DNA of 64,000 bases from Sphyrna mokarran (taxonomy: Eukaryota): the NCBI GenBank assembly GCA_024679065.1, contig JAGIQG010000002.1, positions 82,894,001-82,958,000 of the forward strand, in the 5' to 3' direction. The first letter of the stretch is position 1, and each line of letters begins with the position of its first letter. The notes under the pieces are model-generated. The model saw nothing but the letters and a program-made list of their open reading frames with translations. It made no database searches and was not told the origin of the DNA. Positions 6,858 to 64,000 of this stretch are shown one piece after another. A program made the position numbers and the translations under genes.

Positions 6858-7733
6858 AGGATGACATCAAGATTGGTGGAGTATTGGATGAGGTATATGG
6901 TTCTTTTAGGTTGCAGACAGACTTTGATAGGATGCAGAGCTGGACAGAAAAGTGGCAGATGGAGTTTAACTCTGATAAGTGCGAGGTTATTCATTTTGGT
7001 AGGACAAACTTGAATGGCAGGGTTCTGAGAAATGTGAAGGAATAGAGAGGTCATGGGGCTCATATCCACAGATCTCTGAATGTTGCCACTCAAGTGGATA
7101 GGGCCATGAAGAAGGCTTATAGTGTGTTAGTGTTTATTGACAGGGGGGTTGAGTTTAAAAGCCATGAGGTTATGCTGTAGCTATTCAGGACCTCGGTGAG
7201 ACTACTTTTGAAATATTGTCTGCTGTTCTGGTCACCTCATTATAAGAAGGATGTGGAAGCATTGGAGAGAGTGCAGAGGAGATTTACCAGGATTTGGCCT
7301 GGTTTGGAGGATAGGTTTTATGAGGAAGGTTGAGGGAACTGGTGCTTTTCTGATTAGAGCAGAGGAGGATGAGAGAACACTTAATGAAGGTTTATAAGGT
7401 GATGAAGAGGATAGATAGAGTGGACGTTCAGAAACTACTTACTCACGTGGATGCAGCTGTTACTAGGGGGCATAACTATAAGGTTCATGGTGGGAGATAT
7501 AGGAAGGATGTCCGAGGTAGATTCTTTACTCAGAAAGTGGTTGGGGTGTAGAATGTACTGCCTGCTGTGATAGCGGAGTTGAAACTTTAGGAACTTTCAA
7601 GCGGTTATTGGATAGGCAAATGGAGCACACCAGAATGATAGGGAGTGGGATAGCTTGATCTTGGGTTCAGACGTAGCTTGGCACAACACAGAGGGCCGAA
7701 GGACCTGCACCGTGCTGTACTGTTCTATGTTCT
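6858..7733 (+). mobile_element. 5'-truncated CR1 LINE
   Basis: DDIKIGGVLD..LQTDFDRMQSWTEKWQMEFNSDKCEVIHFG; RGRFFTQKVV; tail gggccgaaggacctg...gttctatgttct. Confidence 0.95.
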
Positions 7734-7919
7734 AAGGAAAGATTTTGAACTGTGGGCTATTAGAGTATTGAAAATTTCACCACAACTGGTTACTGAGGCT
7801 GAATTAGAATATAATTAATAAAGGAATGAGGGGGATTAGCAGGAAATATACAGAGATCTGGGAGAATGAAGTTAAGATGAGAATGGCAGTACCACCTCCA
7901 GGCCATTTTTGATTCTTGA

Positions 7920-9449: not shown

Positions 9450-11446
9450 TAATGTCCTCTCTCTTCTGCTGCTACTAAGCCACCAGGGATGACTGCATAT
9501 CCTGTAAGTGGTCCAGAATGAGAAATATTATCTTTCCAACCTAGACAAGAGCAGTACTCTTCAGCTATGCTGCTCCAATTCTGTGTTGGAACAAAGCGGA
9601 GCTAGGAAAGTTCACAGTGATTCATTCCATAAAGGTACGGGTAGAGTGGAAGGAAACATTTGGAATGATTCTTTGAATCTGAATACTTTTGGACATAATC
9701 ATTCCTCAAATTCTAAGAAGAAAATAAATCAGCTAACAGGATCTTTGGAGCATCAAGGCACTAATTGAAATGGGACTGTCATTTTAATCAATCTGTATTT
9801 GCATTTGGTGGGACAATGTTCATCCTTTCCCTAAAAAAAAATAATCTAGAACATTTTTATGGCATTTTTACTCTCTTACTAATCAAAGGAATATTTTTAA
9901 AACCATTCATATATAGATCCTTACTACATACATGTTTAAACATTAATGCAGACTGAAGTCAAAGGATTGCATACCTATTAAAATAAAGACTGCTTTAGTA
10001 ACGTTGACTGAATCGTGTCAAAACTATCTGGAGGATTTAGACCATTGATGCTCCAGGAAAAGAATCTGTATGAAATGCTGGACAGGAGAAAAAGTATTGA
10101 TGCAAAAAACTGCATAACTTTGATATCTCCAAATCCAAGTTATCAACCCTGAAAAAAAAAGCCTTTGAAGGTTACCACTGAAGTCAGTCTGGTGCTGTAA
10201 CACTTAACTTTTATGACCTTTTGCAGTTGAAATTGGACAAGTGTGCTGGACTTGTTCAATGAGACAGCCCTAAAGTTTCGTTATTTAGTGGAGTGCGAGG
10301 CTAATGATATCTTCAGACCAGGAGTAAACTGAACAAAGTTGCACAAACTGCAGCCTCTAATAAATACCTCTCTTTCATGTTTTGGGTTCAAAGCAGTGAA
10401 AGAGTCTGGAAAGTCTAGCATACACTGGAGAGCTAGGCTATTTCAATTAACACTTTTATATCCGGTGAGTCCGGTTGTCGGAAGGTGACAAGGTTCACCT
10501 TTGCCTTTCCATTAAGACTAATTTCAATGTCATCAGCTCTCTTATATTTTTTTCCTGATTGGAAGTGCAGTATTTTAATGCACATTTAGTCAACCTAAAT
10601 TCCCCGATAGATTCAAGGAAAATGAACTTTAAGCAGTAATATATTTACATTATTTTCTCTATATTAGAAACTTAGTTTGAATTTATAAGACCAAAGCTGC
10701 ATGCTTGCTTGCTGTCCATTCTCTTACAAAGATAACTTGAATTTCTGTGTTTTTAAGCTATTAACATTAAAATTCTACTGGACTATAAACAGATGTATTT
10801 TATAAAATCAAAACCTGGATATTGGGCATGATAAGTATGGGAGCTTTTCTGTAAATTGTATCAAGTATTTAATTAAAGATATAGGCAATCCTGTGTATTA
10901 CTTGGAAAGTGAGAAGACAACTCATCTGAAAAATGAGGCCACAGGGTTCTCAATCGCCTTATCAGGTAAAAGATATTTTACTGCTTTAAATTTTCATTTT
11001 TGTTTCTATTTGAAAAAGTTCCTTATTCTTCACAGCTTTCAAAACATATGCAAATTCAAACATGACTTGAAATTGATGTATTGTTGCTGGTCATCGGACA
11101 AGGTGATTTTGCAGATGCTCTATCACCCCTTCAGTAAGGCACTAGGTGTCACCTGATTGTCCTCCATCAAATCTAATGTGATATCATTGATCAATCATTC
11201 ATCACAATAGTTCTGCCACCATCAATCAGCCACTTCTATACATTCATCTTTGATGCTTTTGTCCCAAGCAAATCTTTACTCTTTCCCACTCAAGATGATT
11301 CCCCTGGTATGGGTCCCACTTTCACAGCAGCTGGGAAGATCCTCAGCAGAAGCATCCATCTGATCTGGAGAAGATTAGAAGAGAACAAAAGTGGTTGCAC
11401 TGGTAAACCACCATGAGTCAGCAACCTGCCAGTGACAGAACATTTT

Positions 11447-11730
11447 AAGTTTAAGTTTATTATTAGAGTCATAAGTAGGTTTGCATCAACATTGCAATGA
11501 AATCTCTTAGTTGCCACACTCTTCAGTTACACTGAGGAAGAACTTGGCATGACCAATGTGTCTAATCAGCACGTCTTTCAGATCATGGAGGAAACCAGAA
11601 CACTCGGAGGAAACCCACGCAGACATTGGGAGCACGTGCAGGCTTTGCACAGACAGTAATCCAAGCTGGGAATTGAATCTGGATCCCTGGTGCTGTGAGG
11701 CAGCAGTGATAACCACTGTGCCACCATGCC
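11447..11730 (-). mobile_element. V-SINE, Rex1-like-tailed type
   Basis: Reverse strand head ggcatggtggcacagtggttatcactgctg, V core, tail ...acttatgactctaataataaacttaaactt. Confidence 0.9.
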
Positions 11731-12280: not shown

Positions 12281-13445
12281 GAATGAACCAGCAGTTGTCT
12301 GTTGCATGCTCTGTTAAAAGAGCTTTGGAGTTCCATGAGGAGAGGGTTGGATACACAACTCTTTCTCAGAGGGTGATGGTGAGTAGAAAGAAATGGAAAA
12401 ATGGAAGGATGAAGGTAGCATTACAGAGAAGCACAGTACCCACACAATTAAGGGAGACCACTGATAACCATTCCAGCCTTCACAGCAATTAGTGGCTGAC
12501 ATGTCCCCAGGGTTCACATTAATTCAACAATGCTTCGCCTGAGTGGCTTCCAGGTTTATATCAGATGACTTCCAATCTAGCCTTGAATCACTGAGACTTG
12601 TTTTCCAACCAGCACATAATCAGTACAATCCCATTCTTACTCAAAGAAGTGGAGGATGGTGTCTCCACCATCCCCATCACCTCACTTCATAGATTCAGCA
12701 TCCACAACAAGTGCATTGTTACTCCATTCCCTAAATCACCCTCAGTATTCTTCATGCAATCCATGAATATACAGAAGTCTCAGCGATACCATCAAACAAT
12801 ATTTTTATAACCACATAAATAGGGACAACATAAGCAGAGCATACATCACCCAGGTGACCCTTAAAATGTAAATAATTGCATTCTTTCCCACTCTTATTCA
12901 GTAATCTCCCTAAAGAAGAGGTAGAAGCAACCTGCTCCAGTGTACCTGCATCCAGCTGAGATGTCCATGGTTTTAACACTTGTTGGCAATGGCCACTGGG
13001 CCTCTTTCACAGGCTGCTGCAGTTGCTTCATCCTGGCTTGCAGCAAGGATAGCTCCTGAGTCAGAGGAGCTGAGAAGGAAAGCAATGACACTGGTGTCTC
13101 CAGTTCAGCAATTGTTTGATGTCCAGCATCAAACAGCAATCCACAATGAGAAACTACAGAAGTGAAATTTGTTTGCACTAAAGGAGAATAATGAGGAAAT
13201 CATGATTCTTAAAGGTTTCAGTAAATGGATCTTTGAAAAACTGTCCATCACGGCCTTAAAAATGTCACTGAGGATGAATGGAATGCAACTGAAATGAAAG
13301 ACAGTTTCACAGATAGTTTTGAATGCTTAAAATGTATTGCCCCATGGTGGTGATCAATAACATCAATAATCTTAAGATGGTGTAGGGCTGGCATTTGGTG
13401 AGAAATGAGGGATGTAAATAATGGACTATATTCTCTGTTTTGAAA

Positions 13446-13772
13446 TTTGATTTTGATTTGATTTGAGTTATCATTGTCACATGTACTAACATACAGTGAA
13501 AAGTATTGTTTCTTGCATGCTATATAGACAAAACATACCATTTACAGAGAAGGAAACAAGAAAGTGCTGAATGTAATGTTACAGTCATAGTTAGGATGTA
13601 GAAGATCAATTTAATGCAAGGTAAGACCATTCAAAAGTCTGACTGCAGCAGGGAAGAAATCGGTTGGTACGTGACCTCAGACTTTCGTATCTTTTTCCTG
13701 AAGGAAAAAGGTGGAAGAGAGAATGTCTGGAGTGCATGGGGTCCTTAATTATGCTGGCTGCTTTGCCGAGGC
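13446..13772 (-). mobile_element. Rex1/Babar LINE 3' end
   Basis: CLGKAASIIKDPMHSRHSLFHLFPSGKRYESLRSRTNR (ORF 13606-13854); (CAAAT)n tail. Confidence 0.85.
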
Positions 13773-15404
13773 AAAGATCTAGAACTGACCGGTTAAGTCT
13801 ACTTAGTACCTCCCTATGTTTCTTTGCACATATGATCATCATCACATTTCTCAATATAATGATTGATTAGTATTATCTTTGGTTGCCAACCCATGACAGA
13901 TCATGTAAAAAAACTAAATATAACATTAGATCTGATAAATAATTTGCATCTTTTATCAGCTTTAAACATCCAGGTGTGATTTTTTCATCAATGAATTCAG
14001 CTAGCAAAAAAATTGTGCCTTCACACATTGATGAATTGCACATTGATTTTTATAGATTTTTTTTCAGTTGCTAATACTTTACATTTTTACTGTCCAGAGC
14101 TTTAATACAGAGGGAATAAAACTTAACATGTAGCTACATAGCCATCTGTGAAATAAATGCCTAGTTAATTAAATAACTTAAATGATGATAGTAGTGAATT
14201 CTGTAAATTAATCTAGGTTTTTTCAGAATACAATACTCTTCACAGGGAGCAACACACAGCCGAGTCCTGCTGTGTGGGTAAACTAGTGACTCAGGTTTAA
14301 TATTAACTTCAGCTCAGAGCATGAACTCCAGCAAACCAATCAAAGGAGCTCCACAGGGAACATCAGTTTCAGCCACTCGAATTTCTGTATTTCAGTAATC
14401 CTATCAGTTCTAAATAACTCACTTTAAAGAGAGGTTCTGGCTGCAAACTCTAGGTTCCTTTCCGAATGACAAGTTCATTCAAGAAATGCAAAAACAATAT
14501 AAATCACTACTGTCAAAAATCTCTTTGTAAATGACATTTTGACGAAGAACTATTTGTTCAGAAAGTAGATTGAATCAATGCTGCAGTTGCTGCTACTGCT
14601 GCTTTAGAATTTGGGCATTTGACTCACAAAATTAGTGGCGTCAAGGCATTATGTCGTTAGTATGAATAATCCCTAAAATATAGATTGACATTCTTTTTAC
14701 CATTTCTGCATTCAGTGATGATATTTTTGTACAACTAGGCAAAAAGTATACACCACTCAGCAGCTATGATACTTGCAGTCTTCCAGACTGGCGCCACAGG
14801 ATTAACAATGACTCTCATTATACACTAATGGCCCTTGTAAAGATTGTAAGGAATTAAGAGCACATTCAATACTGACCTGTTGATTATTAATGTTACACTG
14901 AATTTTCCTCACCTCTTTGAATGTACTAGCCTCGGTTGATTCTTTTTGATTGCTGATCTCTTGTAGAACAGTTTACAGCTGGGTGAGGCATCCAGCAGTC
15001 CCACTCTTGAAATAATGGTGAGAAAATGCCTGATAGTGATCTAGTAATAAAGCTCTAATTCTCATCTTGTAAAAAAATGGGGCAGTACAGGGTAGCTCTG
15101 ATCCATGATTAATCTCCACATCTTTCTTGCAGTGCAAGCAGCACACAGACTTTGTTTGGTCTGTTCATCTACATGACTATCGCATGCAACCAGTATCTAG
15201 CATGTTTTGAGTGACTACTCATCTCAGCAGGAAGTGAGAAATCATGAGATACCAGCATAAGTTCAAGCTAACCTGCAGTAATTAAAGCTGAATGCACATC
15301 TCAAAGAGGACGTGCATTTTGATCAAAACCAGATAGGAAGGCATTCTACTAGTGACATTAACCAGGGAAAGACATAAGAATTGCACAGCAAATCTTAAAG
15401 TCAG

Positions 15405-20719: not shown

Positions 20720-23250
20720 CACCTACACTCTCTCCACCTGTCTCTTCGGAGGCTAAATCCAAACACAACTGATGTGAGTGGACACAGCCTGTCAGAGTCA
20801 TGCCCCAGCTGAGAACCCAAACCCCTTTTGAGGAGACAGCTCTTGATTGAGGAGCAGGACCACATTTACGCAGAGGATGAGGTGGGTCAAGAGACAAAAC
20901 TGAGAATCCTGAAGGCACACAGTCATGGGAAAAGCCTCTCGTGAGTTAACTTTCTCCCATCAGTTATCCCCCATGAAGCACTAATGCCATCTCTCTTCTC
21001 TTACAAGTCAGTAAGGCAACCAGCCCATACTTTCCCCATCCCCTCTAGAGACCACAGGCATGAGCAGCTTCAATGGAGATATCTCAGAACCGAGCAGAGA
21101 AGAGGTTTCACAACTATCATCCACATCCTCCACCAACACAAATACTTACCTTGATGGATTCCATAAGTAGGTAGGCTTCTGGGTCACTCACTTGTGAGCA
21201 CCTCACAAATGAAGATCTGCAGCAGCAGAGACAGTGATGTCCCAGGGAACTTGCACTCAGAGGGATGGCAAAGCTCATGACTCTGTAGAGCCCCTAACCG
21301 ATGCTGTGCCCCTGGGTCTGGTCATCCCAGAGCTGCTGGGCTATCAAGGCAGAGTCAGGAAGGATAACAGAATCCCTCCTCATACTGCAAAGCTGACAGA
21401 ATAAGTCCCATTGTCCTCTGTCCGAGGGGATTGTGCCGTTACTCCAACACAGTGAGGCCAACACTGCAACGGTGGCATCAGCAATGGAAATGTTGGTGCA
21501 GGATGTGCACTCCATGGGGGAGGGAATGTTCTTCAATGATTCAGCTCATGATCTCTCTGGCTGAGGGCATGACCTCCATAGTGTAGGGCTTCAATGGAAT
21601 CCACAAGTGTCAGTGCCAGAAGATAGAGGGATTCCTGAATCTCAAGCCAACTGCTCCTTTGTCCCATGGAGGAACTCCTGGGCACCGAAACGGGAGAGAA
21701 TCAGCAGGGGTGCAGCTAAGACCGTCCACCAAGAGTTCCTGGGGGAATCCAACCCACCTGAGACCTCCATCCCTGTGAACATCACACCTCCAGCCCTGCA
21801 CACTGCAACATCCCTGCAGCCCAAAAGTAGGCCCGGATCCTTAAGGTCCAGGCCTAGAACCACGCACTCACCAAGATATCTCAAGCAACAGGTATGAAAG
21901 TCAGTAGGCTGCCTCAACCTCAGCTGTTGATCCTGGGGATACACCTGGATGTAACAGGAGGGTGAAAAAGAATAAGAAACACTAGACACCTAGTGGGCAT
22001 GGGTGAATCTAAGCATTAGAAGAGATAAGTCACCATTGTAATATTGCTCTTGTATTAAACCTCACTTTGTTCATTTACAGATCCTCCACTCTGTCTTTTC
22101 ATGTTGCCATGTTCAGCAACCCCCCACGTACACTTGGGTTTCATCCTTTTGGAGTGTGAGAATGCAGTGTTACGTCTTTCACACCTCCCAAACTGATGAT
22201 TCAGTAAAGACATGTTGCTCCTGGTATGGGGACCCTCCTCCTACTCATCATCCCTGGATACACTCCCTCCAACCATTCATCCATGGAAAGTGGCAACCCC
22301 TCAGCATCGATGTTCAGGCCTCTCATGCCTGCCACTCTTCTCCACTGCTGAAGAGACCAAGAATTGTCAGTGTTGAGAGGCTGTCCACCTCAGATGTAAG
22401 TTGGAGGAAAGCACCAAGATCCCTGACCTGGAAGGGGACAGGATTAACTGAGATAAGTCATCCAGTGTTTCTGTATCCCATGATAAGCCCATTTCTTGGC
22501 AGGATGTGTTCAGCACTCTGTATGGCAGAAATCAGGCAGATTGCCGACGATGAAAGGAGAATTGCTGTGTCATAAATACAAGTCATCATCACTCTCCTGC
22601 AGAATTAGACCGATGACTTTAGAGTGCTATCCATGAACGTAGGCACCATTATAAGGACTTTCCACTGGCAACACAGTTGATGTCGATGAAAGAGCTCTTT
22701 ATTCCCTGGTCCTGATTGTTCCCAAACAAGAACAATGAGAGCGTCCTTAGTCCTTAGCCCCATGCGAGCCATGCCCTTTGCCCAAGATCTTTCTTCATTC
22801 CCTGCCTTCACATATTGACAATCAATACTTTCCTCAACCTCTCTTCATCCACGGAAATGTAGCGATTCCCCATCTCCTCCTGGTCCAGTGACTCTCCCAG
22901 GGCACTGTCAAGTGTCCACCCTGGAGAGTCTCAGCGGTATCTAACCCTGACCATTCCCCCATCCCCCCGCTCCCCCAATAAGTGTGAGGGCTTAGAACAT
23001 TTGGATGCATGCATTGGACCAATGTTTTAACATCACAAGGGACTTCAGTGCTGCTCCTGTCACCAATAACATGATGTTAAAAGGATGTTTCCAGGCTTCC
23101 TTGGTATTTTTCTCATTACTCCATTGGCCAAGGGAATTGAAAATTGAAAATCGTGAATCCACCGATGAGATTCATGTTTTCTGATTCTGTCTGATTTTGC
23201 ATTTGCATCAACAACTGCACGTGGCTAACACAGGGTCAAAATTGCCTTCA
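20720..23250. mobile_element. Large, heavily decayed GC-richer element, probably Harbinger-derived
   Basis: Compositional shift; weak PFQ..DLG..Q similarity to the transposase on the minus strand near 22400; ends in the TIR-like caaaattgcc. Protein motifs are not clean. Confidence 0.35.
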
Positions 23251-27295: not shown

Positions 27296-29025
27296 ACCAA
27301 ATCAGAACAATGCCACAACAAGGTATTGGCATAGTGCCAATCTGGGAGTGCCTACCTGTGCCAGGGCAGTGCCAAGGAGCATTTCCCTCTCCTCTGGGCA
27401 GCTAAAATCATCTTTAGCACTCCTCCCAAGGATCCCCAAGACAGGTTCATATCTAGTTGAACCTGTTGTGAACCGTGCCATGACGTGACACTGGCACAGT
27501 TTGAATATACGAGGGGTGTCAACATTCGGATGGGGGGTGGTTTTTATATTTAAAAAAGATCAAAATGAATGTAGAGCAGATTCACACCCATACGTCATCA
27601 GTGAGGGGTTGTGAGAATTGGAAGCCAATTGTGACTTCTGGGATTTTGCCAAATCTTAGGCACTACCTCCTGTAACCATTACCATGGATAGTGTGAATGG
27701 GCTCGAGATTGCCCCAGTGTTATTTTCTATTGCTGTCATGTAAATAATTTGATTGCTTAAGGATAGAGCTCTGATATAGAGAAACAGGAGGGATGTTACA
27801 GGGGCAGGAAAGGGGGGGGACTTGATAGTCCCACGTGAGGTCTTGATAAGCCAAAGTACGATGGCCTCAAGATAGGAAGGGATAAGTTCCACATGGGGCA
27901 TTGGGACATTGACATCAAACGGTTCAAGAGGGAGGACAGAGGTATCACCAATTACTACAATGGGACTAATGATTAGAAGGGGAAGAACTGGATGATTGGA
28001 GAGAGATCAGCTTTCAAAGATCCTTTGTTCCTCTTGTGGGAGATCCCCTGTGTAGAAGGAACCAACTAAAAAGGGGAAATAAGACGGAACTATTCCAAAT
28101 GAGCTGAAGATCTTTAAACGCTGCAGCTGCCACTGGAGGAGGATAATTTGGGACACCAAACTATATGGAAAGGTATTCAACATCGGATGTAAAATACATG
28201 GCCAACAAAAGAAGAAAACCTCAGCCTACTTCGTAAAAAAGTGTCAAATTTGCATAAGAACTGAAGTAAGTCCTGCTGATTTTTTCAGCGGGGTTTTCAA
28301 AATGCATCTCCCGCACTCTGTGCATGCAGAGTGCATTAGCACGAATCTCGCAAAAAAAATCAGTGGGTGGGGCCTATTCCTACATAAGAGGCCAGCAGCG
28401 GGCCAAAGTGCATGCACCGATCTGTCAGTGCCAAGATTGGCACATGGACAGTAGCCTTTTTCTGGCAGCCTCCCAATCACTGGCTATCTCAACTGCTGGC
28501 CAGCCTGCGATCCCACATCATCTTCCAATTCCCCCTTCTCCCCACCTCCCCACTATGATTTCTGTGGTGAGGGAATGGGAAAACTTTCCTCTTTGCTTTC
28601 AGCTGTTTCCCTTGACTCAGCATTCCCCCTGGCCCCCCACAGCCAGTCAAACATTAGCCCTCCAAATTCCCCCTTTACCTCCATATCGCCTCCCACTGAT
28701 CCTGCAGGTCAAGCAAGCCTTGCTTCCCACACCCCACTTTGCCTCCCCGGCGGAATTGGAGCAGCTGTGAGTGCAATGCCGTGAAAGTTGGAGAATGTTA
28801 CACACACATACCTCAAGGTCATGGGTGAAGAAGGCTTGCCATGTACATGTCACCTATATATGGTTGTGAATCATGCTGGTCTAGCTGCTGATATGGCCTT
28901 TTTGAATGGAGGGGCTGGAGGTCTGAGTTTTCAATGAGTATTCCTAATATTCAAACTAATATGGGTATATTTCCCAGTATGGCATGGAAGTTAGGAATGG
29001 AAAATCAAGAACTACTTTTTCTTTT

Positions 29026-29310
29026 TAAAGTTTATTTATTAGCGTCACAAGTAGACCTTTATTAATACTGCAATGAAGTTCTGTGAAAATCCCCTAGTTG
29101 CCACAGTCCAGCGCCTGTTTGGTTACACTGAGGAAGAATTTAGCATGGCCAATCCACCTAACCAGCACATCTTTTGGACTGTGGGAGGAAACCACAGCAC
29201 CCAGAGTAAATCCACACAGACAAGAGGAGAACTTGCACAGACGGTGACCCAAGCCAGGAATGGAACCCGGGCCCCTGAGGCAGCAATGCTAGCCACTGTG
29301 CCGTCATGCC
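29026..29310 (-). mobile_element. V-SINE, Rex1-like tail
   Basis: aaagtttatttattagcgtcacaagtag...gaaaatcccctagttgccac...ccactgtgcc. Confidence 0.9.
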
Positions 29311-33789: not shown

Positions 33790-34040
33790 ATAGACATTGG
33801 GACAATTCCTTTGATATTCTTTACAATAATGCCATAGGATTCTTTCTTCCATTTGAGTCAGCAGTGTGCCCATTAGTTTAACTTTTCATCTGAAATAAAG
33901 TGATAGTGCAGAATTTCCTCAGTACTGTTCTGCAAAGAGATGTTAGCTAGGTTTTGAACTTGAGTTTAGAATGGGACTTGAATCCACTAGCCATTGATTC
34001 AGAGATGGGAATATTACCACTGTGTAATGGCTGACACCTA
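33790..34040 (-). mobile_element. DeuSINE (SacSINE1-like)
   Basis: aataatgccataggattc, gtttaac..tcatctgaaa, agtgcag..tttcctcagtactg, gggacttgaatccac, ggctgacacc. Confidence 0.75.
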
Positions 34041-34164
34041 GTGAGCTAACCAGGGAAGCAGTTACTGACTTCTCTTAACAATAATCTGATAAACATGAGT
34101 AAAAAAGTCATTGGTGATGACAGAGTGGTACATTAAATCATTTTCCACTTTTTCTGTTCACTTG

Positions 34165-34240: not shown

Positions 34241-36849
34241 ACTCATTTGATCTAAAGTGAGGGATCTGCAAGTTCACAATTTGATTGTCAGCTCAGTAGG
34301 GTGATAAAGGTTTTAGCTGTCTTTGATGTAGAACTATGAATACAAAAGTTTGTTTTTGTAAGGGATTATTCCTTGAATTAAACATTTCTTACCATAGAGG
34401 ATGAAGTCCTTGAAAGAAATGTTTCACTGGTTTTATAATGGATTAAGTACCTCAAATAATTTGAATGCATTGAATGGGTATTTATCAATGAAAGTGCTTA
34501 TAAACAGATTGAAATCTGCAACTGATAGTTTAACTTCATTTTATTTCACCTCAGCATAGCTCATGAGGGCTGTCCATGGTGGACACTGGTGACTTGGCAT
34601 GGAGGGTATAAGAACAAAGAATAGTGGAAGGGGGCATGGGTTGACGTGATTTGGTACTAAGTTAGCATAGTGGTTATTAATGGCAATGGGGATATTTGGC
34701 AGGATGTGGTCATGGGTTGGCATGAGTTGAGACTGATTTGGCATGGTGTGCATAAGAAGCTATGAGGAGGGTAGAGGAGTATAAACTTGCATTGAGGGTA
34801 AGATAGACTATGTTATGAGCTGGCATGAATGGGACAGGGGGAGACTGTGGAAGGGGCTGATGGGGAAGTGCTTTAGGGCTGATTTTCATTTTAATTCATT
34901 TTTTACAACTGGGATAAAGTATCAGACCATCAAGGTGAGCCTTTTAAACAGCCCTCCTGGGAACGGAGCAGCTACTGTGGGTGCCTCCCACTGTTTCCAA
35001 GGACAGCAGCTCTTCTCTTTTATTCCTTGACCTTTTGCTTCATATATCCATTTTCCCCTCAGGATTAATCTCGATATTGATATAAAAACAGTTAGTGCTA
35101 TTTTTAGTGGCTAGTCTAGTATGCTTTGATTCCATGGAAACAACTGGACCAAAGCCCATTTGCAGAAGATCTGTTTTCTGGTTATAATGTACAAAGAGTA
35201 AAATAGGTAGGTTAATTATCCTTTAAGTATAATCCCCAATAACATGTGCAGTCTCTGGTTGTGTTGGCTGTATGGTCACTTATACTGGCCCAATCTGCAG
35301 CAAAAACGACCCCATCAACTAAAACAAAAGTTCTCTGTTTTTCCCTCAGAGGATATATGGAACAGACTTCCAGTAAAAGTAGCTGACGCTGAGACAAGTA
35401 ATTATTTAAAAATAAAGAGCTGGATAAATATCTAGTTGAGAATAGGATTGTTGGCAAGAGGGTACGTCTAGATGAGATGATCACAATGGTTTGTGTGTTG
35501 AAGAAGCACTTGCTCAGTGGGAGAGGGCAAAGTTATTAGGTGAATCATTCTTATCCATTTTCAGAACTTGGGTCTAACAAGAGTGACTCATGAAAAACTA
35601 ATAAAGAAGTAAAGGAAGTTCTACATTTCTAGCCAAGGGAGACAAAGGAATGGGGCAGACAGGAAATTAGGGTTAAGGCCATAATCAGATCAGCCGTAAT
35701 CTTAACAGCTTGAGAGGCCAAACAGCCTACTCTTGCTCCTAGTTCTTGGGTTCTTATACAAGGCACCTTTCACAACCTCAGGATCACCTGAAACTTTGAG
35801 AATGAAGTGTGGGAAATTTATGAGGGTTAGCTGTACTTTGAGATTAGATAATAAAATTGGTTCACCATCTCAGCATGTGGTTCCCTGGTTCTGTGGTGGC
35901 AAGATGTATATTGGAGAATATTATAGTTAGCTATGAAATGTACAATTAAAAACATACATCATCTGTCTATTTATTTGTGTTAGGGTGAGAACTGCCACAA
36001 GAGTTATTTATATTTATTTCTGTGCCACTTTCAACATAGAAAACATACCATTGATACTTTACAGAACAGGAAGAAACAATAATTAACATAGTTGCAGAAT
36101 TGGACATCTTCCCGTGGAGCAGGTACAGACTGGTAGTGAGGGGAGGGCCAAGATGGCTGACTCCTCTGCCCAAAGTGAAGCCCAAAGTCAGAAAATCACA
36201 GGCTGTTGTAAGACTAAAGGAGAATGCAGAAATAGGGGGCTGGATGTTGTGTTTCAGAAATGGAATGATACTAGTACCACGAAAGAATAATTTCCAATAT
36301 GATGCCATCAAGTGACAAATCCAACATCATCACGTCAGTCAACAATAATACAGTGGGCAACTATGCCCTAAAATCAGGAGTCCTCCCACTATTTTGAAAT
36401 GAGTAATTAACAACTATTCAAGTTCATTAGCAGTTCAATCGACTGTAATAATATATTCCCAGTACCATGATATATCAAGTATCTAAAACATAGAAATTGT
36501 GAACACTAATACTGTAGGAGCCTCCAAATCCAGCAACTACAGGGAACCTCGTTCAGAAGAAACATATGGTAGTGCCATCTTGGATTACCCAATAGCATTT
36601 AAAGTTCAACACACTGTTTTAAAATGTAATGACCATGGATCAAGCATCTACCACACCAGACATATGTACCACTCAGTTCTCACCAATGACTTTTTTACTC
36701 ATGTTTATCTGAATACTGTTAAGAGAAGTCGGTAATTGCTTCCCTGGTTAGCTCACTAGCTGTCAGCCATTACACAGTAGTAGTACTCCCACCCCTGAAT
36801 CAGACCTACATCAGTCACACAATTGGGAACTTTGCATAAAGTTCATGAT

Positions 36850-37995
36850 TGCTTCAGGTCTAGAAGAAGGGGTGCAGGCAAAGCATGGTACAGAACAACT
36901 CCCAGTTGGTAAAACAGCAGAACTGCAGGGAGACTCCAGACTAAAGGAAGCAATATTATAATGGACCATAAAAGGACGGGCAACCATGCCATCGCTGTGG
37001 AACCTAGTGACCCATATAAGCATGACCAATCTCAGCGCAGCATTTTAATTGCAACTGTATAAGATACGTTGGTAAACTATGCAAAGCTAAAACAAGATGC
37101 ATAGATGATCCCAAAACGACTCACAAGATCAAGAAGAAACATACCCATGCTTCTTTGGTTAGGTCAAAGTTCTGGGATTTTTATTCTAGCAATGACTGTA
37201 ACACTACATTCTGCACTCTCTCTTCTTCTTCTCTATGAACGGTGTCTGTACAGCATGCGAGAAATGATACTTTTCAATGTATATTAATACATGGGACAAT
37301 AACAAATCAAATCAAATCAAAATCAATTTCTGGAACGTAAACATCTCAGGTAATGATTATCTCACAAACTTTAAACTGGACACGGGAGCCAGTGTCATGG
37401 TCCCCTCAGACAATGAACTGTGGCTAGTGACACAATTTGTTAATGCCACCCAAAACACAGCCGCATGTATTAACCTTCCAGTGAAAGATACTGTGCAGGC
37501 AGCACTCAAATACAAAGACAAAACCCACATTCATCATCTACAACCAAGAATGTTCCCTTTAAGCCAAAAAGCCTGTGTCAATCTCAACCTCCTACAGAAA
37601 TTTGACAAAGTTAACTAGATTCTGATTCCAAAGTAAAAAACAGTTCCTGAAAGATTGGGCTACTCAGAGCCACATGCAGAATATACTGAGAGAGAATGCT
37701 AAGCCCATGTGCCTGCTTGTACCACGAAAAATATCCTGTCCACTCATGAAGCAAGTGCAGCCACAGCTGGACAAGATGAAAAAATGGATGCCATCGCTTT
37801 GATCACTCAGCCAAATGAATGGTGTTCCAGCAGGATCCCATTCCCAAAACTGAGTGGGTCCATCTCTACCTGCTTCAACGTGACACTCAATAAAGCTGTG
37901 GCAAGGGAAGTCAATTAGATCTCCTTGGTGGATGACAATCTGATCAAACTCTCTCAAAGCATAGTGTTTTCAAAGTTGAAAGCTGACAATGAATA
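36850..37995 (+). mobile_element. Decayed Ty3/Gypsy LTR retrotransposon internal region (gag zinc knuckle, aspartic protease, RT start)
   Basis: FNCNCIRYVGKLCKA (CCHC-like); FKLDTGASV (protease); ITQPNEWCS..PKLSGSI..LNKAVARE; VDDNLIKLSQSIVFSKL. Confidence 0.85.
37186..37326 (+). mobile_element. Rex1/Babar 3' UTR fragment inserted in the Gypsy element
   Basis: Reverse complement of 13446-13590; ends (CAAAT)n. Confidence 0.85.
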
Positions 37996-38804
37996 ACAGA
38001 CAAGCAGAAGTAGAAGTAAAGTAATGTAAATAACAGGAATACACTGTAAGTATTTTGGATAAAGACGAGGGGGAAGTGTAGTATAAGGGACTGGTATTGA
38101 AATGGTTAATGTGGGACTGGGTACATTACTGCTCATTGAGTGGGACCTAAAAAAATACATGACCCAAGTCTAGAGGGCAGTCATGGACTGGACAGAACCA
38201 TGTGTAGAAGCAAGCATGGAGACAGCTCATAACTTAAAGCTTATAATGTATACACAGTCCACTGGCCCTTGTCTGCAATGCCTTTTGCAGCTGCCCTCTG
38301 ATTCCCTAACGCCATGAGGGCCCCAACATGCTGGGGGTTTCCTACACAGTGACAGGAGGTGGCAAGCAAAGATACCTGTGCCAATGGCAGAGAAATGAAG
38401 GAAAGACACACTGCATCACAAGCACCCTGAGAGTTGCCCTTGACAACATCAACTGCTGCTTCCCTTCCACCACAAGATCCATTTGTTACTGACTGCTTTC
38501 TTGAGAGGGATGTAAATTTGGGATCCTTATCCCTCCTATCACCCTAGCTCTGATCCCTACTCTGAGTATAGGTCAGAACGAATGCCCACAACTACTCCAG
38601 TAGTTGGGTTTGGCCACCCAAGACAGTTGCCAATAGAGGAAGTGGTATGTCCTGTAGAGTTGGTGATCCCTGTGCTCACGGCCTGGATGGACTCCTCCTG
38701 TGACCGTGTCAAAACATGCAACCCTCTGCCTCATCGCCACACACCTTGTGCTGGTCGGCCAGCATCTGGTGATTTATAAACGACTCCAGAGATTTCGACG
38801 GGGA

Positions 38805-40080
38805 CTCAACGGGGTTTCGTGAAGGGTAGGTCATGCCTTACTAACCTCATTGAGTTTTTTGAGAAAGTGACCAAAGAGGTGGATGGGGGTAAGGTGGTTG
38901 ATGTAGTATATATGGACTTTAGTAAGGCGTTTGATAAGGTGGCCCATGGAAGACTTCTACAGAAAATGCAGATGTGTGGAATAGAGGGTGATTTAGCTAA
39001 TTGGATTAGGAATTGGCTGGCAGATAGAAGACAGAGGGTGGTGGTTGATGGGAGATATTCATCGTGGAGTTCGGTGACGAGTGGTGTGCCTCAGGGGTCT
39101 GTTTTGGGGCCCCTGCTGTTTGTAATTTTTATAAATGATCTGGATGAGGGTATTGAAGGATGGATTAGTAAATTTGCAGATGACACTAAAGTCGGTGGAG
39201 TGGTAGATAGTGAAGAGGGGTGTTATAGTTTGCAGAGGGACTTGGACAAGTTGCAGAGCTGGGCCGAGAGGTGGCAAATGGAGTTTAATGTGGAAAAGTG
39301 TGAGGTAATGCACTTTGGCAGGAACAATAAATGTGTAGAGTATAGGGCTAATGGTAGGGCTCTTAATAGTGTTGAGGAACAGAAGGATCTTGGTGTATGT
39401 GTCAATAGATCCCTGAAAGTAGGCAGTCAAGTGGATAAAGTTGTTAAGAAGGCATATGGAGTCTTAGCTTTTATTGGTAGGGGGATTGAATTTAGGAGCC
39501 GCAGCATCATGTTGCAACTGTACAAAACTCTAGTGCGGCCGCACTTGGAGTATTGTGTGCAGTTCTGGTCCCCACATTATAAGAAAGATGTGGAGGCATT
39601 GGAGAGGGTACAGAGGAGGTTTACCAGGATGTTGCCTGGTATGGAGGGCAGGTCCTATGAAGAGAGGTTGAAGGATTTGAGGTTGTTTCGTTAGAAAGGA
39701 GGCGGCTAAGAGGGGATCTTATTGAAGCATATAAGATGATTAGAGGTTTAGATAGGGTGGACAGTGATAGCCTTTTTCCTAGGATGGAGAAAGCTAGCAC
39801 GAGGGGACACAGCTTTAAATTAAGGGGTATGAGTTATAGGACGGATATCAGAGGTAGGTTCTTTACTCAAAGAGTGATTAGGGAGTGGAATGCCCTGCCT
39901 GCAGCTGTTGTAGATGCGCCAAGTTTGGTGGCGTTTAAGAGGTTAATTGATAAGTATATGGAAGAGAAGGGAATGGTTTAGTTTGGAGGGGCATTGCTTT
40001 TTATTTTGGTCGGCACAACATCGAAGGCCGAAGGGCCTGTTCTGTGCTGTAATGTTCTATGTTCTATGTTCTATGTTCTA
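38805..40080 (+). mobile_element. Young 5'-truncated CR1 (HER1-like) LINE
   Basis: Open RT frame; tail gggcctgttctgtgctgtaat followed by (GTTCTAT)n. Confidence 0.97.
38819..39981 (+). pseudogene. CR1 ORF2 reverse transcriptase C-terminal half with a single frameshift
   Basis: GRSCLTNLIEFF, YMDFSKAFDKV, GVPQGSVLGPLLF, KFADDTK, RPHLEYCVQFW. A 1-nt loss at ttt 39686-39688 joins LRLF to (S)LERRRLRGDLIEAYKMIRGLD (ORF 39736-39981). Confidence 0.95.
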
Positions 40081-48559: not shown

Positions 48560-49320
48560 GCATCAACTCATATACTGCTGAAAAATTCATTCATAACTTT
48601 GTTACCCCCAGATTTGACTATTCATGGTGGCACAGTGGTTAGTACTGCTGCCTCACAGCTCCAGGGACCTGGGTTCGATTCCCGGCTTGCGTCACTGTCC
48701 CTGTGGAGTGTGCACGTTCTCCCTATGTCTGTATGGGTTTCCTTTGGATGCTCTGGTTTCCTCCCACAAACAGAAAGACGTGCTGGTTAGGTGCATTGGC
48801 CATACTAAATTATCCCTCAGCATACCCAAACAGGCACCTGAGTGTTGCGACTAGGAAATATTCACAATAACTTTGTTGGAGTGTTAATGTAAACCTTATG
48901 TGATACTAATAAATAAACTTCAAACTTAAAGACTTATTCTAACTCATTTAGTTAGATCTGCCCCTAATGCTCTACCCTCTAAATTTGACATTATCCAAAA
49001 CTCTGCTATTTGTGTCCTAACTCGCGTCAAGTCCCATGCACTTATCATTCCTACTGCTCAATGACTTACGTAGGCTCCTGGTTAAGCAACATCTCAGTTT
49101 CAGAAATCTCATTGCTTTCTTTCACATAATCCCATGGTCTTGCCTGTCCCTAACGCAGCCTCACAATCCTCGGAGATAGCTGTCTGGCTCTAATCCTGGC
49201 CTCTTGCACATCACTGAGTTTAATTGCACTACCATTGTTAGTTATGTCTTCAGTTGCCTCAGCTCTAAGCTTTGAATTCCATTCTTAAATCTCACTGCTT
49301 TTCCAACTTGCTTTCCAAAC
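48560..49320 (+). mobile_element. L2 LINE 3' region interrupted by a V-SINE
   Basis: FVTPRFDY(S) resumes after the SINE; IIQNSA..VLTRVKS..LND(L)..LLV; typical L2 C-terminus and tail. Confidence 0.75.
48623..48930 (+). mobile_element. V-SINE, Rex1-like tail
   Basis: catggtggcacagtggttagtactgctg, gggttcgattccc (B box), tail tgtgatactaataaataaactt; flanks gactattc / gacttattc. Confidence 0.92.
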
Positions 49321-50290: not shown

Positions 50291-51255
50291 GATATATTTG
50301 TTTCGACACTTTTAACTATTCTGTCTTAATTCATTCAGCCACATTCTATTACATATATTCTTTTTGTTATAAGAACTCAATGTTATAACTGAAGTAAATT
50401 TTCATCTCTAATGCTTGCAGAGCAGAGCTTTTCACTCCAGTATGCATATTGGGAATTTTGAACAACAATCTATATTGAAAGTGGAAGGGTTAAAAGGGCA
50501 ACTAATGAATCTAGACAGGGTGTGCATGGTAACCAGAGAGCAAGGACATCAATTTGCATAATATATAGCCTTAACTGTTGGAATGGGGGTGGTTACTGAA
50601 TAATGTCTCTTAAAGAAATCTTCATAGTCTTCAGTATGTTAACAGCAAATTTTTATTAACTACTTTATTAACTATTATTTATTTACAATAGACAGTAAAA
50701 TGTACAACCAAGAAGCTATCTCCAGGTCTATGTCTTCATTCACCTGCAGTCAGCAGTTAAATTGAGGTTGTTATTCATTTTACTGACAGCTAGCCACAGA
50801 ATTTTCACAGGATTTTAGCAGCGACTTGATGTCATTGAGCAGCTGAATCAGCATTGCACCCTCTACAGGATATCTGCACATTCACCGGACAAGTAACAGC
50901 AAGGTCATTTTAATCAGTAGAATCCTCAATGAGATAAAAAGGGATTTATAAAAATGTTAGGGCTCATTGTTGAGCAAAAGGGTGTGACCTGCCCAGGTCC
51001 ATTCCTATTTAAGGGAGACAATGCTCAGAGCTTGGTCAGCTTCCTAATTTCAATGACTGGTCATGCAGACCAGAATAAAGAAATGTTGTTGACTGGATTC
51101 ATACATAACATGGGGACTGATAACCCATGAGACAAGTATCAATGCCAGTTCTGTAAAAAAGTTTTAATTCTGTACTGTTTGCAAAGATTTGTAATGTTTT
51201 TTTTGAGGGTTTTATGAATGAAGTATATTTTTGAGAAAAAAAACTGCCCCTTTAT

Positions 51256-51573
51256 GGCACTTCTCAGCCTTTTGGCTAAAATCAACTGTGGTACCTACAT
51301 GCTGCATTTGGTTGAAGTCATTAGGTTACATTTCAACTTCATTTGAAGCAATTTTTTAAAACAGTATCTTGGCCTTTTGGCTAAGATGAAAATAAGATCA
51401 AGTCTTGGAGGCGGAGCTACACCTACTCCAATCAGCTTAGATCGTGTAGATCAAGCCCAAGAGAGGTGGTGAGAGCCCTGACTTGTCAGCTTGGATCAGA
51501 AATGTCCTAAGTTGTTGGGACTCTGAATTTGATTTAATTTGACTTGATTGGATTGGAATAAAGTTTAAAAAAT
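51256..51573 (+). mobile_element. U2 snRNA-derived, A-tailed SINE-like retroelement
   Basis: 51256-51296 matches U2 nt 1-41 at 33/41 by manual alignment; second U2 block tcttggccttttggctaagat at 51367-51387; aataaa and A tail; TSD aactgcc(c/a)cttt at 51242-51253 and 51574-51585. Confidence 0.8.
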
Positions 51574-51639
51574 AACTGCCACTTTTAAAGTGAAGCTACA
51601 CTGAATCAAAGAAAGTTTCTGGTGATTGGCGAATGGAAA

Positions 51640-51840
51640 TGGAGCACCAGGGCACACAAAGGACCATTCAGTTTATAGATTGGGCTCTGGTAGTCATCAA
51701 AATGAACGGGAGGAAAGATACTATTATTTTGTGGAAAGTCAGGTGACACTCTTCTGTAAGGTCTATGCCAGAAGTTGGTTTTAAAGACCAGGAAGCAGTG
51801 CAGGAAGATATTTAATGACTTAATGCAGGTGGCCAATATG
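51640..51840 (+). pseudogene. Myb/SANT-like Harbinger partner remnant
   Basis: KTRKQCRKIFNDLMQVA (ORF 51775-51960). Confidence 0.65.
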
Positions 51841-53589
51841 ACACACCAACTGCATGTTGACAGAATGGTAGGCCTTGCAGCCCTATGTCCTTTCCCATTG
51901 GTTAAGAGCACTTTTCCTACTTCAAATGCACCTAGCACATGTTCACCAAGGAAGTGCTGATAGAACTGTGCCACCTCCATCAACCTAACCTGGAAGTTCA
52001 CATAATGCCTCAGGCCTTTGTGTTGCTTGTCCAGCTCCATGGAAGAGCAACCTCATGAATCAGATGCAGCAGGCAGCTGAGTGTAGGCTGGTCCTCACAA
52101 ATAGCCTGCACATTAAGCTCTCTTCACAACATGGATGAAAACGCAGCCTTGGTCATTCAGAAGCTCACTGAGGTACAGTAAATGGTCTCCAGCTCTTAAT
52201 AGCAGAGATTAGCAGGTGGATCATGATAGGGAGGATAAAGAAACAACACAAGGCCATGAGGATTCTTCTTCAGTCTCTTCCAATCATTCCTCTTGCTGAA
52301 GCCTGTATCTAAACCATTGCTTCTTTATGGCAGTCCTCATCTACAAGTCATTGTTACTACACTAATATTGAGGCCCCATCTCTGTCATCTCATTGGAATA
52401 GGTCAACCACCTTGCTATGGATTGCTTTGGTCTCCCAGAGATCAACAATAGTGTAAACTGAAAAAAATTATGGCAGTTGTGAATGCCTCAGGATAAAAGA
52501 TTCATGGCAGTAACATGTATAAAGACCTTAGTGTGGTCACATAAAACCTGCACATTAATGGGGTGGAATAGTTTCTGAACACAAATGTTTTTGGTTGTTG
52601 CATTAGTGCCATTATTGACATGGCTGAAGTCTATCATTCTTTGAACTTGTGGGAAGCCAGCCTATATTTATGAAGAAGATAAAATGTTTCCAAATCCAAA
52701 TAAGGGGTGCATAGCACTGTGCTGATACACCAGTGAGCTGTTGATTGAGAGACGCAAGAGAAGTCTGCACTAGCTAGAAGGAGCTGGCTGCATAGAATTT
52801 TATGGCTATGGTAATTTCAAATGTAACAAGTAAGGGCATGGTTGATTGTGATGCAAGGTCTTTTTCCACCATGGCACAAACATCTATAATCATTTCCCTT
52901 GAAATTTGGAGCCTTCACCTAGACTGCCTCTCACTCATATCGCAATAACTTCTTCAGAGACAGTATACCCTTCACCTTGGATAGTATTTCTTTTTCCTTC
53001 CTCTTGCACTCTGTGATAGCCCTGCCAATCCTGAGCAAGTTCTGGCTGCACATTGCTGTTGCTGTGCTTCCTCTATTGTGTGTATGTAGGAAGATGCAGT
53101 GGCCATTTTTTTCAACTTCCTTCCTTCACTACACCGTCAGCAAACATGGCAATCTATCCTGTCCCCCACTTAGTTGCCTCAGGCAGGAACTCCTCCTTGG
53201 GAGCCACACAGATATTCTCTTTCACTTTCACCACCCTACAACCAGTTCCCATTGTGGTCAGGGGCCAACCTCCATCTTTATAGTAAAATTTCTGTTCAAA
53301 CTTTCCCTTTGCAGAGTTCTGCACAGATCTCTTTTAGGAGCCTTCTGAAGTCTTTACACTTCCACCCATAAACTCATGAATCCTGCACTGCAGGCCAAGG
53401 CAATTGCAGCAGAGAAAATTGTCTGTTTAAACTCTCCATTAATGTTAAATCGTACAAATCATGTCCTCTCATTTTCCCCTTCTGACAAAAACACTTCCAA
53501 CTGGAAAAGGAGGCAGGAATTCTGTACCCAGGTTCTGCTCATCCTTTCAAAATGTCTGTTGAGTCGGGAAGAGGTTTTGAAAATCCAGG

Positions 53590-56052: not shown

Positions 56053-56416
56053 CAGTAAGAAGTCTCACAACACCAGATTAAAGTCCAACAGATTTATTGG
56101 GTAACACAAGCCACAAGCTTTCAGGGTGCTGCTCCTTCATCAAGTGAATGAGAGTTTAATCCTTTCTCCACTCACATTTTCTGTACCTTTAAGACTTGAT
56201 CACATATAAAGACTCACATTCCAACCATTATTTTGTAAATTGAGTTTGTATCTTTATATGCTCTGTTTGTCAACAGAACTTCCACTCACTTGATGAAGGA
56301 GGAGCCTCTGAAAGCTAGTGGCTTGTGCTACCAAATAAACCTGTTAGACTCTAACCTGATGTTGTGAGACTTTTTACTGTACTTATCCCAGTCCAACGCC
56401 ACCATCTCCACATCAT
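56053..56416 (+). mobile_element. Penelope-like element 3' end with inverted pLTR and hammerhead-like cores
   Basis: Inverted arms ~56053-56156 and ~56277-56379; ttgatgaaggaggagcctctgaaagct; terminus cccagtccaacgccaccatctccaca. Confidence 0.8.
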
Positions 56417-57055: not shown

Positions 57056-57300
57056 AAAGTTTATTAATTAATCACAAGCAAGGCTTACATTAACTTTGCA
57101 ATTAAGTTATGGTGAAATTCCCTTAGTTGCCACACTTTGGTGCTTGTTTGGGTCAATGCACCTACCAGCACATCTTTCAGACTGTAGCAGGAAACCGAAG
57201 CACCTGGAGAAAACCTACACAGACATGGGGAGAACATGCAAATTCCACACAGGCAGTGACCCAAGCCAGGAATCAAACTCAGGTCCCTGGCACTGTGTCA
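57056..57300 (-). mobile_element. V-SINE, Rex1-like tail
   Basis: aaagtttatta..tcacaagcaaggcttacattaac...gaaaccgaagcacctggagaaaacc. Confidence 0.9.
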
Positions 57301-57969: not shown

Positions 57970-58205
57970 TAGACATCCTAATGCATCTCACCAGCTTTGA
58001 AGCCTAAATTTTCTCTAAAGCTCTCCTGCCCTATCCCTGAACTCGCATCTTTCTTTATGTTTTTTTCTATCCTCCCTCATGCCCACACTGAATTAATCTT
58101 ATCCATTGAAACCACCACCTTCTCCCTTGACCTTGTATTCGTTGAACTATTAGTTATCCAACTTCCCCTTCTGGTTTCTATGTTCGTCAGTGTGTTAATT
58201 GTTTT
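57970..58205 (+). mobile_element. L2 LINE internal fragment
   Basis: LSIETTTFSLDLVFVELLVIQLPLL resembles L2 SMxPTTCSLDPIPTKLL. Confidence 0.55.
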
Positions 58206-58373: not shown

Positions 58374-59010
58374 ATTTGATTTGATTTATTGTTGTCATAT
58401 ATATTGTTATACAATGAAAATATTGTTTCTTGCACACTATACAGACAAAGCATACTATATATTGAGAAGGAAAGGAGGGGGTGCAGAATATAGTGTAACA
58501 GTCATAGACATCCTAATGCATCTCACCAGCTTTGAAGCCTAAACTTTTTCTAAAGCTCTCCTGCTCTATCCCTGAAACTCGCATCTTTCTCTACGCCCCA
58601 CACAGGGTGTAGAGAAAGAGCAACTTAGTTTAAGGTAGAGCCAGTCAAAATTCTGATGGCAGCAGGGAAGAAGCTGTTCTCAAGTTGGTTGATACATGAT
58701 CTCAGACTTGTGTATCCTCTCCTTGACGGAGGAAGGAACAAGACAGTATGAACAGAATGCTTGTGAACATTGATTATTGCTGGCTATTTTTCTGAGGCAG
58801 TGGGAAGTGTAGGCACAGTCAATTGATGGGACACTGGTTTGTATGATGGACAGGGCAATATTCACAATCCTTCGTAATTTCTTGCAGTCTTGGTCAGAGC
58901 AGAGGCCATACCACAATGTGATACAACCAGAAAGCATGCTTTCTATGTTGATTCATAAAAGTTGGTGAGAATCATGCTGAATTTCCTTAGCCTCCAGAGA
59001 AAGTAAAGGC
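58374..59010 (-). mobile_element. Rex1/Babar LINE 3' end carrying a ~95 bp templated insert
   Basis: LSGCITLWYGLCSDQDCKKLRRIVN..SHCLRKIAS; (CAAAT)n tail; homologous to 13446-13772. Confidence 0.88.
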
Positions 59011-62979: not shown

Positions 62980-63292
62980 GGCATGGCATTATGGCACAGT
63001 GGTTAAAACTGCTGTCCCATAGCGCTAAGCACTGTGTTCGATTACCAGCTTGGGTCACTGTCTTTGCAGAGTTTATACATTCTTCCCATGTCTGCGTAAG
63101 TTCCCTCCAGGAACTTTGATTTCCTCCCACAGTCTAAGAAACATGCTGATTGGGTACATTGGCCATGATAAATATTCCCTCAGTGCATCCAAATAGGCGT
63201 TGGAGTGTGGCAACTATGGGATTTTCACAATAACTTCACTGCAGTGTTAATGTAAGCCTACTTGTGACAATAATGAACAAACTTAAACAAAA
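62980..63292 (+). mobile_element. V-SINE, Rex1-like tail
   Basis: tggcacagtggtt..gttcgatt..; tail cttcactgcagtgttaatgtaagcctacttgtgacaataat. Confidence 0.9.
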
Positions 63293-64000
63293 ACTTACGT
63301 ACCTGGATCAGTCTTTGGCTTTTCCATGAGGAGATGGTAAAATGCTGCACCTGTTAAGTTGGGAAAGACTTCTGACTTTGACCATTTGGTTTGGAAATTC
63401 TTGGTTCTGCAGGTTAGCTGTAATTACGAACCTGTCCTGTTTCCTTTTTGACTATGGCTTTGCTGACTTGTGACTTACTTCCAGTAAGCAGGGAGAGATA
63501 GAGACTTCTTCATCTGCAAGCAGGAGTGCCTAGTGAACATTCCTCAACTGTGATTCTCACATCGCACCTTCGTATAGTTGAACTAGAACAACAAACAAGC
63601 ACCTAGGGACAAGGGTTTCAGTTGATTTTTTTCATACTTTTTCCTTTGTACCCCTGGAAAGAGAAAAACACAAATATGTCTAGGATATAACTCATAGGAG
63701 ATTGCCGTCTCTGCTGAGACTATCAGCTTCCATTATCTACACAAGACATTACAGCTCAGTTTTTGTATTATACCTCTTCCTTTGAAATGTCTTTCTGAAA
63801 AAGGGTGCAATATTCTGCTGTCTCTCTTGGGACTGAATATAATTCATGTAGGATTTCCAATAATTGATTACACCACAGTCTCAATTTTTACTTGCATTTT
63901 CCTTTCTGTACAAAACATCTTATTTAAAATATCAATATGTCCATATGTAACTTGTCTAGAAAAACTGCATTTCAGATTTTTGAAAAGTTCCAAACTTAAA

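Follow-up and report, generated by a model that had tools for sequence, protein, structure and literature searches.

A probable SINEU-like retroposon family with a U2 snRNA-derived head and a predicted fold-back antisense arm in the shark Sphyrna mokarran

The window analysed here is a stretch of 64,000 nucleotides from Sphyrna mokarran (assembly GCA_024679065.1, contig JAGIQG010000002.1). At 51254-51575 of its plus strand lies an element of about 320 nt that comprises a head derived from the 5' end of U2 snRNA, a second U2 stem-I block, an AATAAA signal and a short A tail, and that is flanked by a 12-bp target site duplication (TSD). The element is non-coding, with stops in all plus-strand frames and no open reading frame. 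Other copies were sought among contigs of four of the 18 runs listed, from four studies (X1, X2, X5 and X7), which were placed on 50500-52300 at 80% likeness and numbered 2,749-4,694 per run. X1, in which 95% of the words are present, could itself be the source of the window; X2, X5 and X7 represent relatives.

The U2-derived head occupies 51254-51296 (+). The Rfam model of U2 (RF00004) aligns to the element from 51256, which corresponds to model nucleotide 1, with 27.7 bits and an E value of 0.0025 at a relaxed threshold, the gathering score of 46 not being reached. No Rfam family other than U2 matched the element, and none reached its gathering score within the 64-kb window. Compared by eye with the Rfam consensus, 32 of the first 41 model positions are identical, or 33 when position 3 is given what we take to be the vertebrate letter, which bears out the U2 head of about 41 nt proposed in a first-pass annotation of this DNA. 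That annotation also placed the start of the element at U2 nt 1. Such a start is not established: model positions 1-4 are all mismatched in the Rfam alignment, and the first six letters of this copy are those that precede the internal U2 block in the contigs of other copies. Among the 24 of 1,282 loose contig ends listed, which include ends before 51297 and 51308, U2 letters extend to nt 39-40 in other copies and are followed by the same body. The head of the present copy is about 78% like U2, near the 80% cut-off used for the contigs.

In the body, an AT-rich linker (51328-51364, +) with a run of six Ts at 51352 leads to the second U2 stem-loop I block (51365-51388, +), for which a 10-bp hairpin is predicted (z -5.2). 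The first reading had put this block at 51367-51387; it is present at 51367-51390, 105 nt downstream of the head block and 83% identical to it, and an 18-nt U2 motif has two matches, at 51263 and 51368 (the mean in shuffled sequence was 0.04, and none of 100 shuffles had two). The GATC-type echoes reported earlier are likewise there, at 51395-51497. A first hairpin unit of about 53 nt (51393-51445, +; z -2.6, with 3 of 200 shuffles folding as well) has its basal stem in common with a second (51446-51500, +), a tandem counterpart with a different middle whose folding by itself is not beyond chance (z -1.1; 29 of 200 shuffles as good). In unit 1, one loose end had suggested by eye an antisense echo of the U1 loop or of U2 stem-loop IV; this was rejected, as cmscan returned no minus-strand snRNA match.

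A further hairpin precedes the tail (51504-51521, +; z -2.6). Judged by eye among the loose ends listed, relatives' copies have other letters at this hairpin, with two pairs changed and the stem still formed. A subfamily-like variant of it appears as loose ends behind 51497 in X2, X5 and X7 and is not among the X1 ends listed. The (TTGA)-like tract of the earlier description exists at 51526-51554 (+) but is weak, being a degenerate T/G/A-rich tandem tract of period 10 with a TRF score of only 37. The AATAAA and A tail described there occupy 51557-51575 (+), with AATAAA at 51557, a short and interrupted A run and a family 3' end at about 51572. No tRNA was found in the element, and a search for a pol III promoter in this one decayed copy returned no exact A or B box, only matches to loose motifs with one mismatch.

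What had been taken for a non-U2 spacer between the head and the second U2 block contains, at 51300-51327 (+), an antisense arm that copies U2 nt 11-38 colinearly. Against 51266-51293 of the head, 23 of its 28 columns pair, six of them as G.U, which gives a predicted fold-back stem of 23 bp with -24.0 kcal/mol, a value reached by 0 of 200 shuffles. Equal pairing was met at one other non-trivial place among 127,944 on both strands, and within 300 nt chance would supply about 0.007 such places. For the 5' hairpin, the z scores are -3.2 to -4.0 on the plus strand against -1.2 to -1.9 on the minus strand, and equally good folding occurs in 6 of 760 GC-matched tile strands. The whole element folds at -97.3 kcal/mol (z -4.07), as good folding being found in 2 of 170 GC-matched tile strands and 27 of 398 tile strands overall; its difference between strands is ordinary, since 42 of 199 tiles show one as large. 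With the majority letters of other copies (the X1 row before 51308 and the window's letters at 51308-51313), U2 nt 25-38 form 14 consecutive pairs by eye. All departures from the exact complement (6/6) are confined to the eight sites that allow G.U pairing (p about 0.009 in a post hoc test), and the four As of the exact complement are all G in the majority letters of other copies, so that A-to-I editing or CpG decay could contribute to the wobble-biased changes besides selection, or instead of it.

The stretch covered by this arm, U2 nt 11-38, carries the U6-pairing and branch-recognition sequences. The earlier suggestion that the RNA of the element carries this region holds in so far as the sequences are present, but the antisense arm is predicted to bury them in the fold-back hairpin rather than leave them exposed. 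This antisense arm, with its predicted fold-back over the U2 head, is the distinctive and new feature of the element.

The two TSD copies lie at 51242-51253 and 51574-51585 (+) and agree over 12 nt with one mismatch, as the first reading had it; of 20,000 pairs of 25-nt stretches drawn at random, 8 have such a 12-mer in common. The first two As of the 5' copy are perhaps part of an upstream A tail, and no third copy of the TSD was found upstream. That tail belongs to an A-tailed piece at 51110-51243 (+), and the view that the element adjoins another apparent retro-insertion is confirmed by the repetition of this piece itself: relative to the flank, its depth is 213-1,154x in the bin 51171-51231 and 1-51x in the bin 51110-51170 across the four runs, the clearly repeated part being about 51171-51243. 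It may bear a likeness to a 5'-truncated Tx1-type 3' UTR. Its tail showed no similarity to the 3' end of the element (548 of 1,000 shuffles score as high).

An empty site is preserved in the relatives. In each of X2, X5 and X7, a single contig connects 51109 with 51576 across 63 intervening letters, so that both the element and the upstream A-tailed piece are missing from the orthologous site in all three (one locus), and the joint resumes inside the 3' TSD copy, as an insertion predicts. These 63 letters may correspond to 51110-51172 in diverged form, or else be target sequence that the lineage of the window has lost, which leaves the 5' breakpoint approximate. The flanks of the relatives differ from the window by about 8% (X2), and the three runs share nearly all of the flank variants listed, so they count as approximately one outgroup lineage. 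Contigs of X1 span both junctions of the element with 0 differences.

Similar arrangements elsewhere are no more than hinted at by single contigs among the 15 of 38 joints listed: tail-to-element joints at 51231->51367 (X2) and 51243->51308 (X5), and a head-to-tail joint of element to element at 51566->51366 (X2). Jump-back joints between the two U2 blocks were rejected as a sign of tandem monomers, as either block can catch the same letters. A remnant of Tx1 ORF2 at 50900-51100 was also rejected, this segment being single-copy orthologous flank in the relatives and without a Pfam match. A Harbinger-type transposon as the insertion target is unsupported (Pfam gave only Myb_DNA-binding_7 at E 0.15, and PDB nothing meaningful). 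Just downstream of the insertion, a decayed, frameshifted frame at 51633-51870 (+) may resemble a Myb/SANT-like Harbinger ORF, and depth rises 2-10x at 51781-52146. Upstream, at 50561-50743, lies a small repeat whose depth reaches at most some 60-85x that of the flank; three runs share a loose end behind 50665 in it, and it probably forms part of a longer element.

Depth in the flanks is at the level of a single contig (15.5, 18, 7.8 and 6.5 in the four runs), and over the body (51293-51536) it stands at 4,300-11,196x this level in X1 and 9,916-23,882x in X2, X5 and X7; summed contig depth is no copy number, and these values are to be read as 'thousands or more' only. At least 38-52 contigs per run leave the element at 51572 into dissimilar A-rich flanks (agreement 0.39-0.42), and 24-48 contigs per run have U2 letters before 51297 (24 of 1,282 loose ends listed). 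The body depth, the varied A-rich 3' junctions and the U2 letters in other copies together show a dispersed family and not a one-off. The multi-copy, U2-headed retroposon envisaged in the first-pass annotation is thereby supported, a single-copy body being contradicted by depths of thousands of times the flank in all four runs. Since 3,929 of 4,584 X1 contigs are less than 95% alike to this copy, it is not young. There is no second copy inside the 64-kb window, and motif scans for other full copies gave 0 in viral contigs, metagenome contigs (two patterns) and prokaryote genomes.

Depth does not increase toward the 3' end, unlike that of piled-up truncated LINE ends, and the bin of the head, at 195-672x flank, is much shallower than the body; either the head of this copy is too diverged for capture at 80% or many copies are 5'-truncated. 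The shallow head would also suit a chimera, formed once or repeatedly and independently, in which U2 RNA was template-switched onto an abundant A-tailed RNA, and chimeras of this sort are known (available text of PMC4494074). Its probability seems to us negligible: contigs of all four runs (4/4) have the same head-to-body junction, and a body in which a second U2 block occurs together with an antisense arm that matches the head indicates that head and body were built together.

Two further readings of an abundant structured repeat were weighed. A satellite, a Helitron or a non-autonomous DNA transposon that carries U2 sequence by chance could account for the high depth and for the internal tandem units and hairpins. 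We hold this to be very improbable, since the 64 kb contain a single copy, the 3' junctions vary, a 12-bp TSD and an A tail are present, and none of the 13 inverted pairs found is a terminal inverted repeat. Alternatively, the copies might be retrocopies of a functional structured ncRNA gene that was assembled from parts of U2 and is copied by a LINE only incidentally. The strong predicted structure, the 3' stem kept by eye through different letters in relatives' copies, and the presence of the family in runs whose flanks are about 8% apart all agree with such a gene; depths of thousands to tens of thousands, an AATAAA with an A tail, tandem units and subfamily-like variants typify a selfish element, and Rfam matches nothing but U2. 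On balance a functional gene appears quite improbable.

We consider it likely that this insertion belongs to an abundant, U2-headed family of non-coding, A-tailed repeats of SINEU-like type, likely pasted in by target-primed reverse transcription of a Tx1/L1-type LINE, in which the antisense arm is predicted to fold over U2 nt 11-38. In the available text of the original description, SINEU-1, -2 and -3 are reported from crocodilians only (Kojima 2015, PMC4494074), with about 7,700, 1,600 and up to 1,058 copies, respectively, and the transcription of these promoter-less elements is stated as an open question. Compared with that account, the shark element resembles SINEU in being short and non-coding, with a U2-derived 5' head, more than one snRNA block, a poly(A) tail, TSDs of about 10 bp and thousands of copies. 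SINEU elements further have an internal oligo-T, no pol III promoter and tandem insertions beside Tx1-type ends (PMC4494074); the T6 run of the shark copy and its position on another A-tailed repeat, if that tail is of Tx1 type, may be the counterparts of these traits. The features of this class seen in the shark are an snRNA head, a non-coding, A-tailed unit of less than 500 bp amplified as a whole (contigs), and a TSD with an empty site.

The shark element differs from SINEU in its host, the two being set apart by host and description and not by aligned consensus sequences. Neither an antisense copy of the head with fold-back nor tandem 53-nt hairpin units are described for SINEU in the available text (PMC4494074), and no preference for one DNA-transposon target is seen in the shark, where 3' flanks are varied. 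What is already known is the class of U2-headed SINEs, as crocodilian SINEU; what is new, apparently, is a shark example with a predicted fold-back arm. No shark snRNA-headed SINE was found among the papers listed in the literature searches, though most subscription journals, Repbase Reports and Dfam lay outside the search and the family may already stand there. None is mentioned in the available text of PMC4640811, PMC6136364, PMC5786205, PMC4758252, PMC5381603, PMC5499810, PMC7245038, PMC7922186, PMC5322556 or bioRxiv 10.64898/2026.10.27.761883. Tailless or chimeric U2 retropseudogenes (Noll et al. 2015, PMC5322556, available text) also combine a 3'-truncated 5' fragment of U2 with TSDs, but they are independent dead copies, whereas the shark element has a fixed body of 280 nt amplified as a unit.

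LINEs with ties to U2 provide the other comparison. Keno, of the Tx1 clade, and Utopia insert before U2 nt 39 (PMC4640811, PMC6136364, available text), and the U2 head of the shark family ends within 1-2 nt of this site. In contrast to these LINEs, the shark element has no ORF, does not lie in a U2 gene, lacks U2 nt 39 onward at its 3' flank and occurs in dispersed flanks. U2-headed Tx1-Mar LINEs such as Tx1-11_Crp resemble it in carrying a U2 head on a retroelement (PMC4494074, available text) but differ from the shark unit, which measures about 320 nt, ends in an AATAAA and A tail of its own and was seen to have no LINE continuation. The family might accordingly consist of an internally deleted, non-autonomous Tx1 that is U2-headed or U2-targeting (Keno-like), with the U2 5' flank and the 5' UTR fused to the 3' end of the LINE; it would work in the same way and be classed as a non-autonomous LINE instead of a SINE. 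Such a descent would fit the Keno and Utopia insertion site, a fold-back stem that ends at nt 38 with a family head ending at nt 39-40, and the existence of a crocodilian Tx1 with a U2 head. We nevertheless judge it unlikely, as no common LINE continuation is found at either end (24 of 1,282 loose ends listed), depth does not pile up at the 3' end and the head extends 1-2 nt beyond the Keno site. The related proposal that the element is merely a Tx1 UTR is disfavoured by other copies with U2 upstream, unrelated A-rich flanks downstream and no shared ORF among the ends listed, although a deleted Tx1 would look alike.

For the U2-headed SINE family that we prefer, the following cycle can be proposed. 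A few master copies would be read by Pol II from an outside promoter, that of a U2 gene or of a flanking unit, as we infer from the T6 run and from the fact that no pol III B box was seen. Their RNA would be polyadenylated at AATAAA and copied by target-primed reverse transcription with an AP-endonuclease LINE of Tx1/L1 type, a partner suggested by the 10-12 bp TSD, the A tail, the position on another A-tailed repeat and the crocodilian precedent. CR1, which as a rule leaves no poly(A) tails with 10-12 bp TSDs, is for this reason an unlikely partner. Held in the fold-back, the U6-pairing and branch-recognition sequence may be unable to engage either the spliceosome or the pathway of U2 assembly, and this might let a U2-headed RNA be polyadenylated and copied, a masking role that is predicted from the modelled pairing.

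The origin of the family is probably independent of crocodilian SINEU. The end of the stem at U2 nt 38 and of the head at nt 39-40, set beside Keno and Utopia insertion before nt 39, suggests that the family arose at a Keno-type junction within a U2 gene; the 3' truncation of U2 retrocopies at preferred single-stranded sites counts against such an origin (PMC5322556, available text). A fuller scenario, in which an independent and undescribed shark U2-headed retroposon is more abundant than crocodilian SINEU, has an antisense arm under RNA-level selection that masks U2, has captured a U2 promoter and descends from the Keno site, is offered tentatively and appears to us doubtful as a whole.

If the preferred reading is true, sharks would possess a second, apparently independent lineage of snRNA-headed SINEs beyond crocodilians, one with many copies. 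Being large and having both subfamilies and lineage-specific insertions, the family offers material for finding master copies and promoters, and the sites of presence or absence are possible phylogenetic markers for sharks. The antisense arm moreover provides a testable idea of how a selfish RNA may include the functional end of a spliceosomal RNA and yet leave splicing undisturbed.

The window holds several other repeats. A CR1-type reverse transcriptase frame of 304 aa lies at 38780-39691 (+) (Pfam RVT_1), with a second copy, 68% alike, at 6860-7734. Among the 120 matches listed, proteins labelled Chiloscyllium and Stegostoma are 73% and 75% identical to it, two rays reach 66% and 59%, and birds, turtles and lizards 41-59%, which points most probably to an elasmobranch host, a shark rather than a crocodilian. 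Three close relatives (P0001, P0002 and P0013), from a JGI contig (94%) or labelled Klebsiella (78%) and Proteus (68%) on contigs of 1.5-1.7 kb, are probably host DNA contaminating microbial assemblies.

A tRNA-like SINE family gives 10 matches, 72-79% alike, that make up 3.2% of the window (48623-48936, 29024-29308, 62992-63297, 11444-11728, 57057-57297 and shorter pieces) and that we take to resemble elasmobranch V-SINE/HE1. For scale, all SINEs in a crocodilian genome amount to about 15 Mb (PMC4494074, available text). A 177-codon open frame at 22042-22572 (+) has a weak DUF5948 match (E 0.022, below the cut-off), probably by chance, and 133 further open frames of at least 72 aa gave no Pfam match. 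Another dispersed repeat family, 68-79% alike, occupies 13444-13773, 37183-37329 and 58374-58799, and 57970-58057 and 58505-58593 form a local duplication (94%). Finally, the inverted pairs 33995-34133 / 36664-36802 (90% alike) and 56053-56156 / 56277-56379 (86%) could be transposon ends or a MITE-like hairpin.
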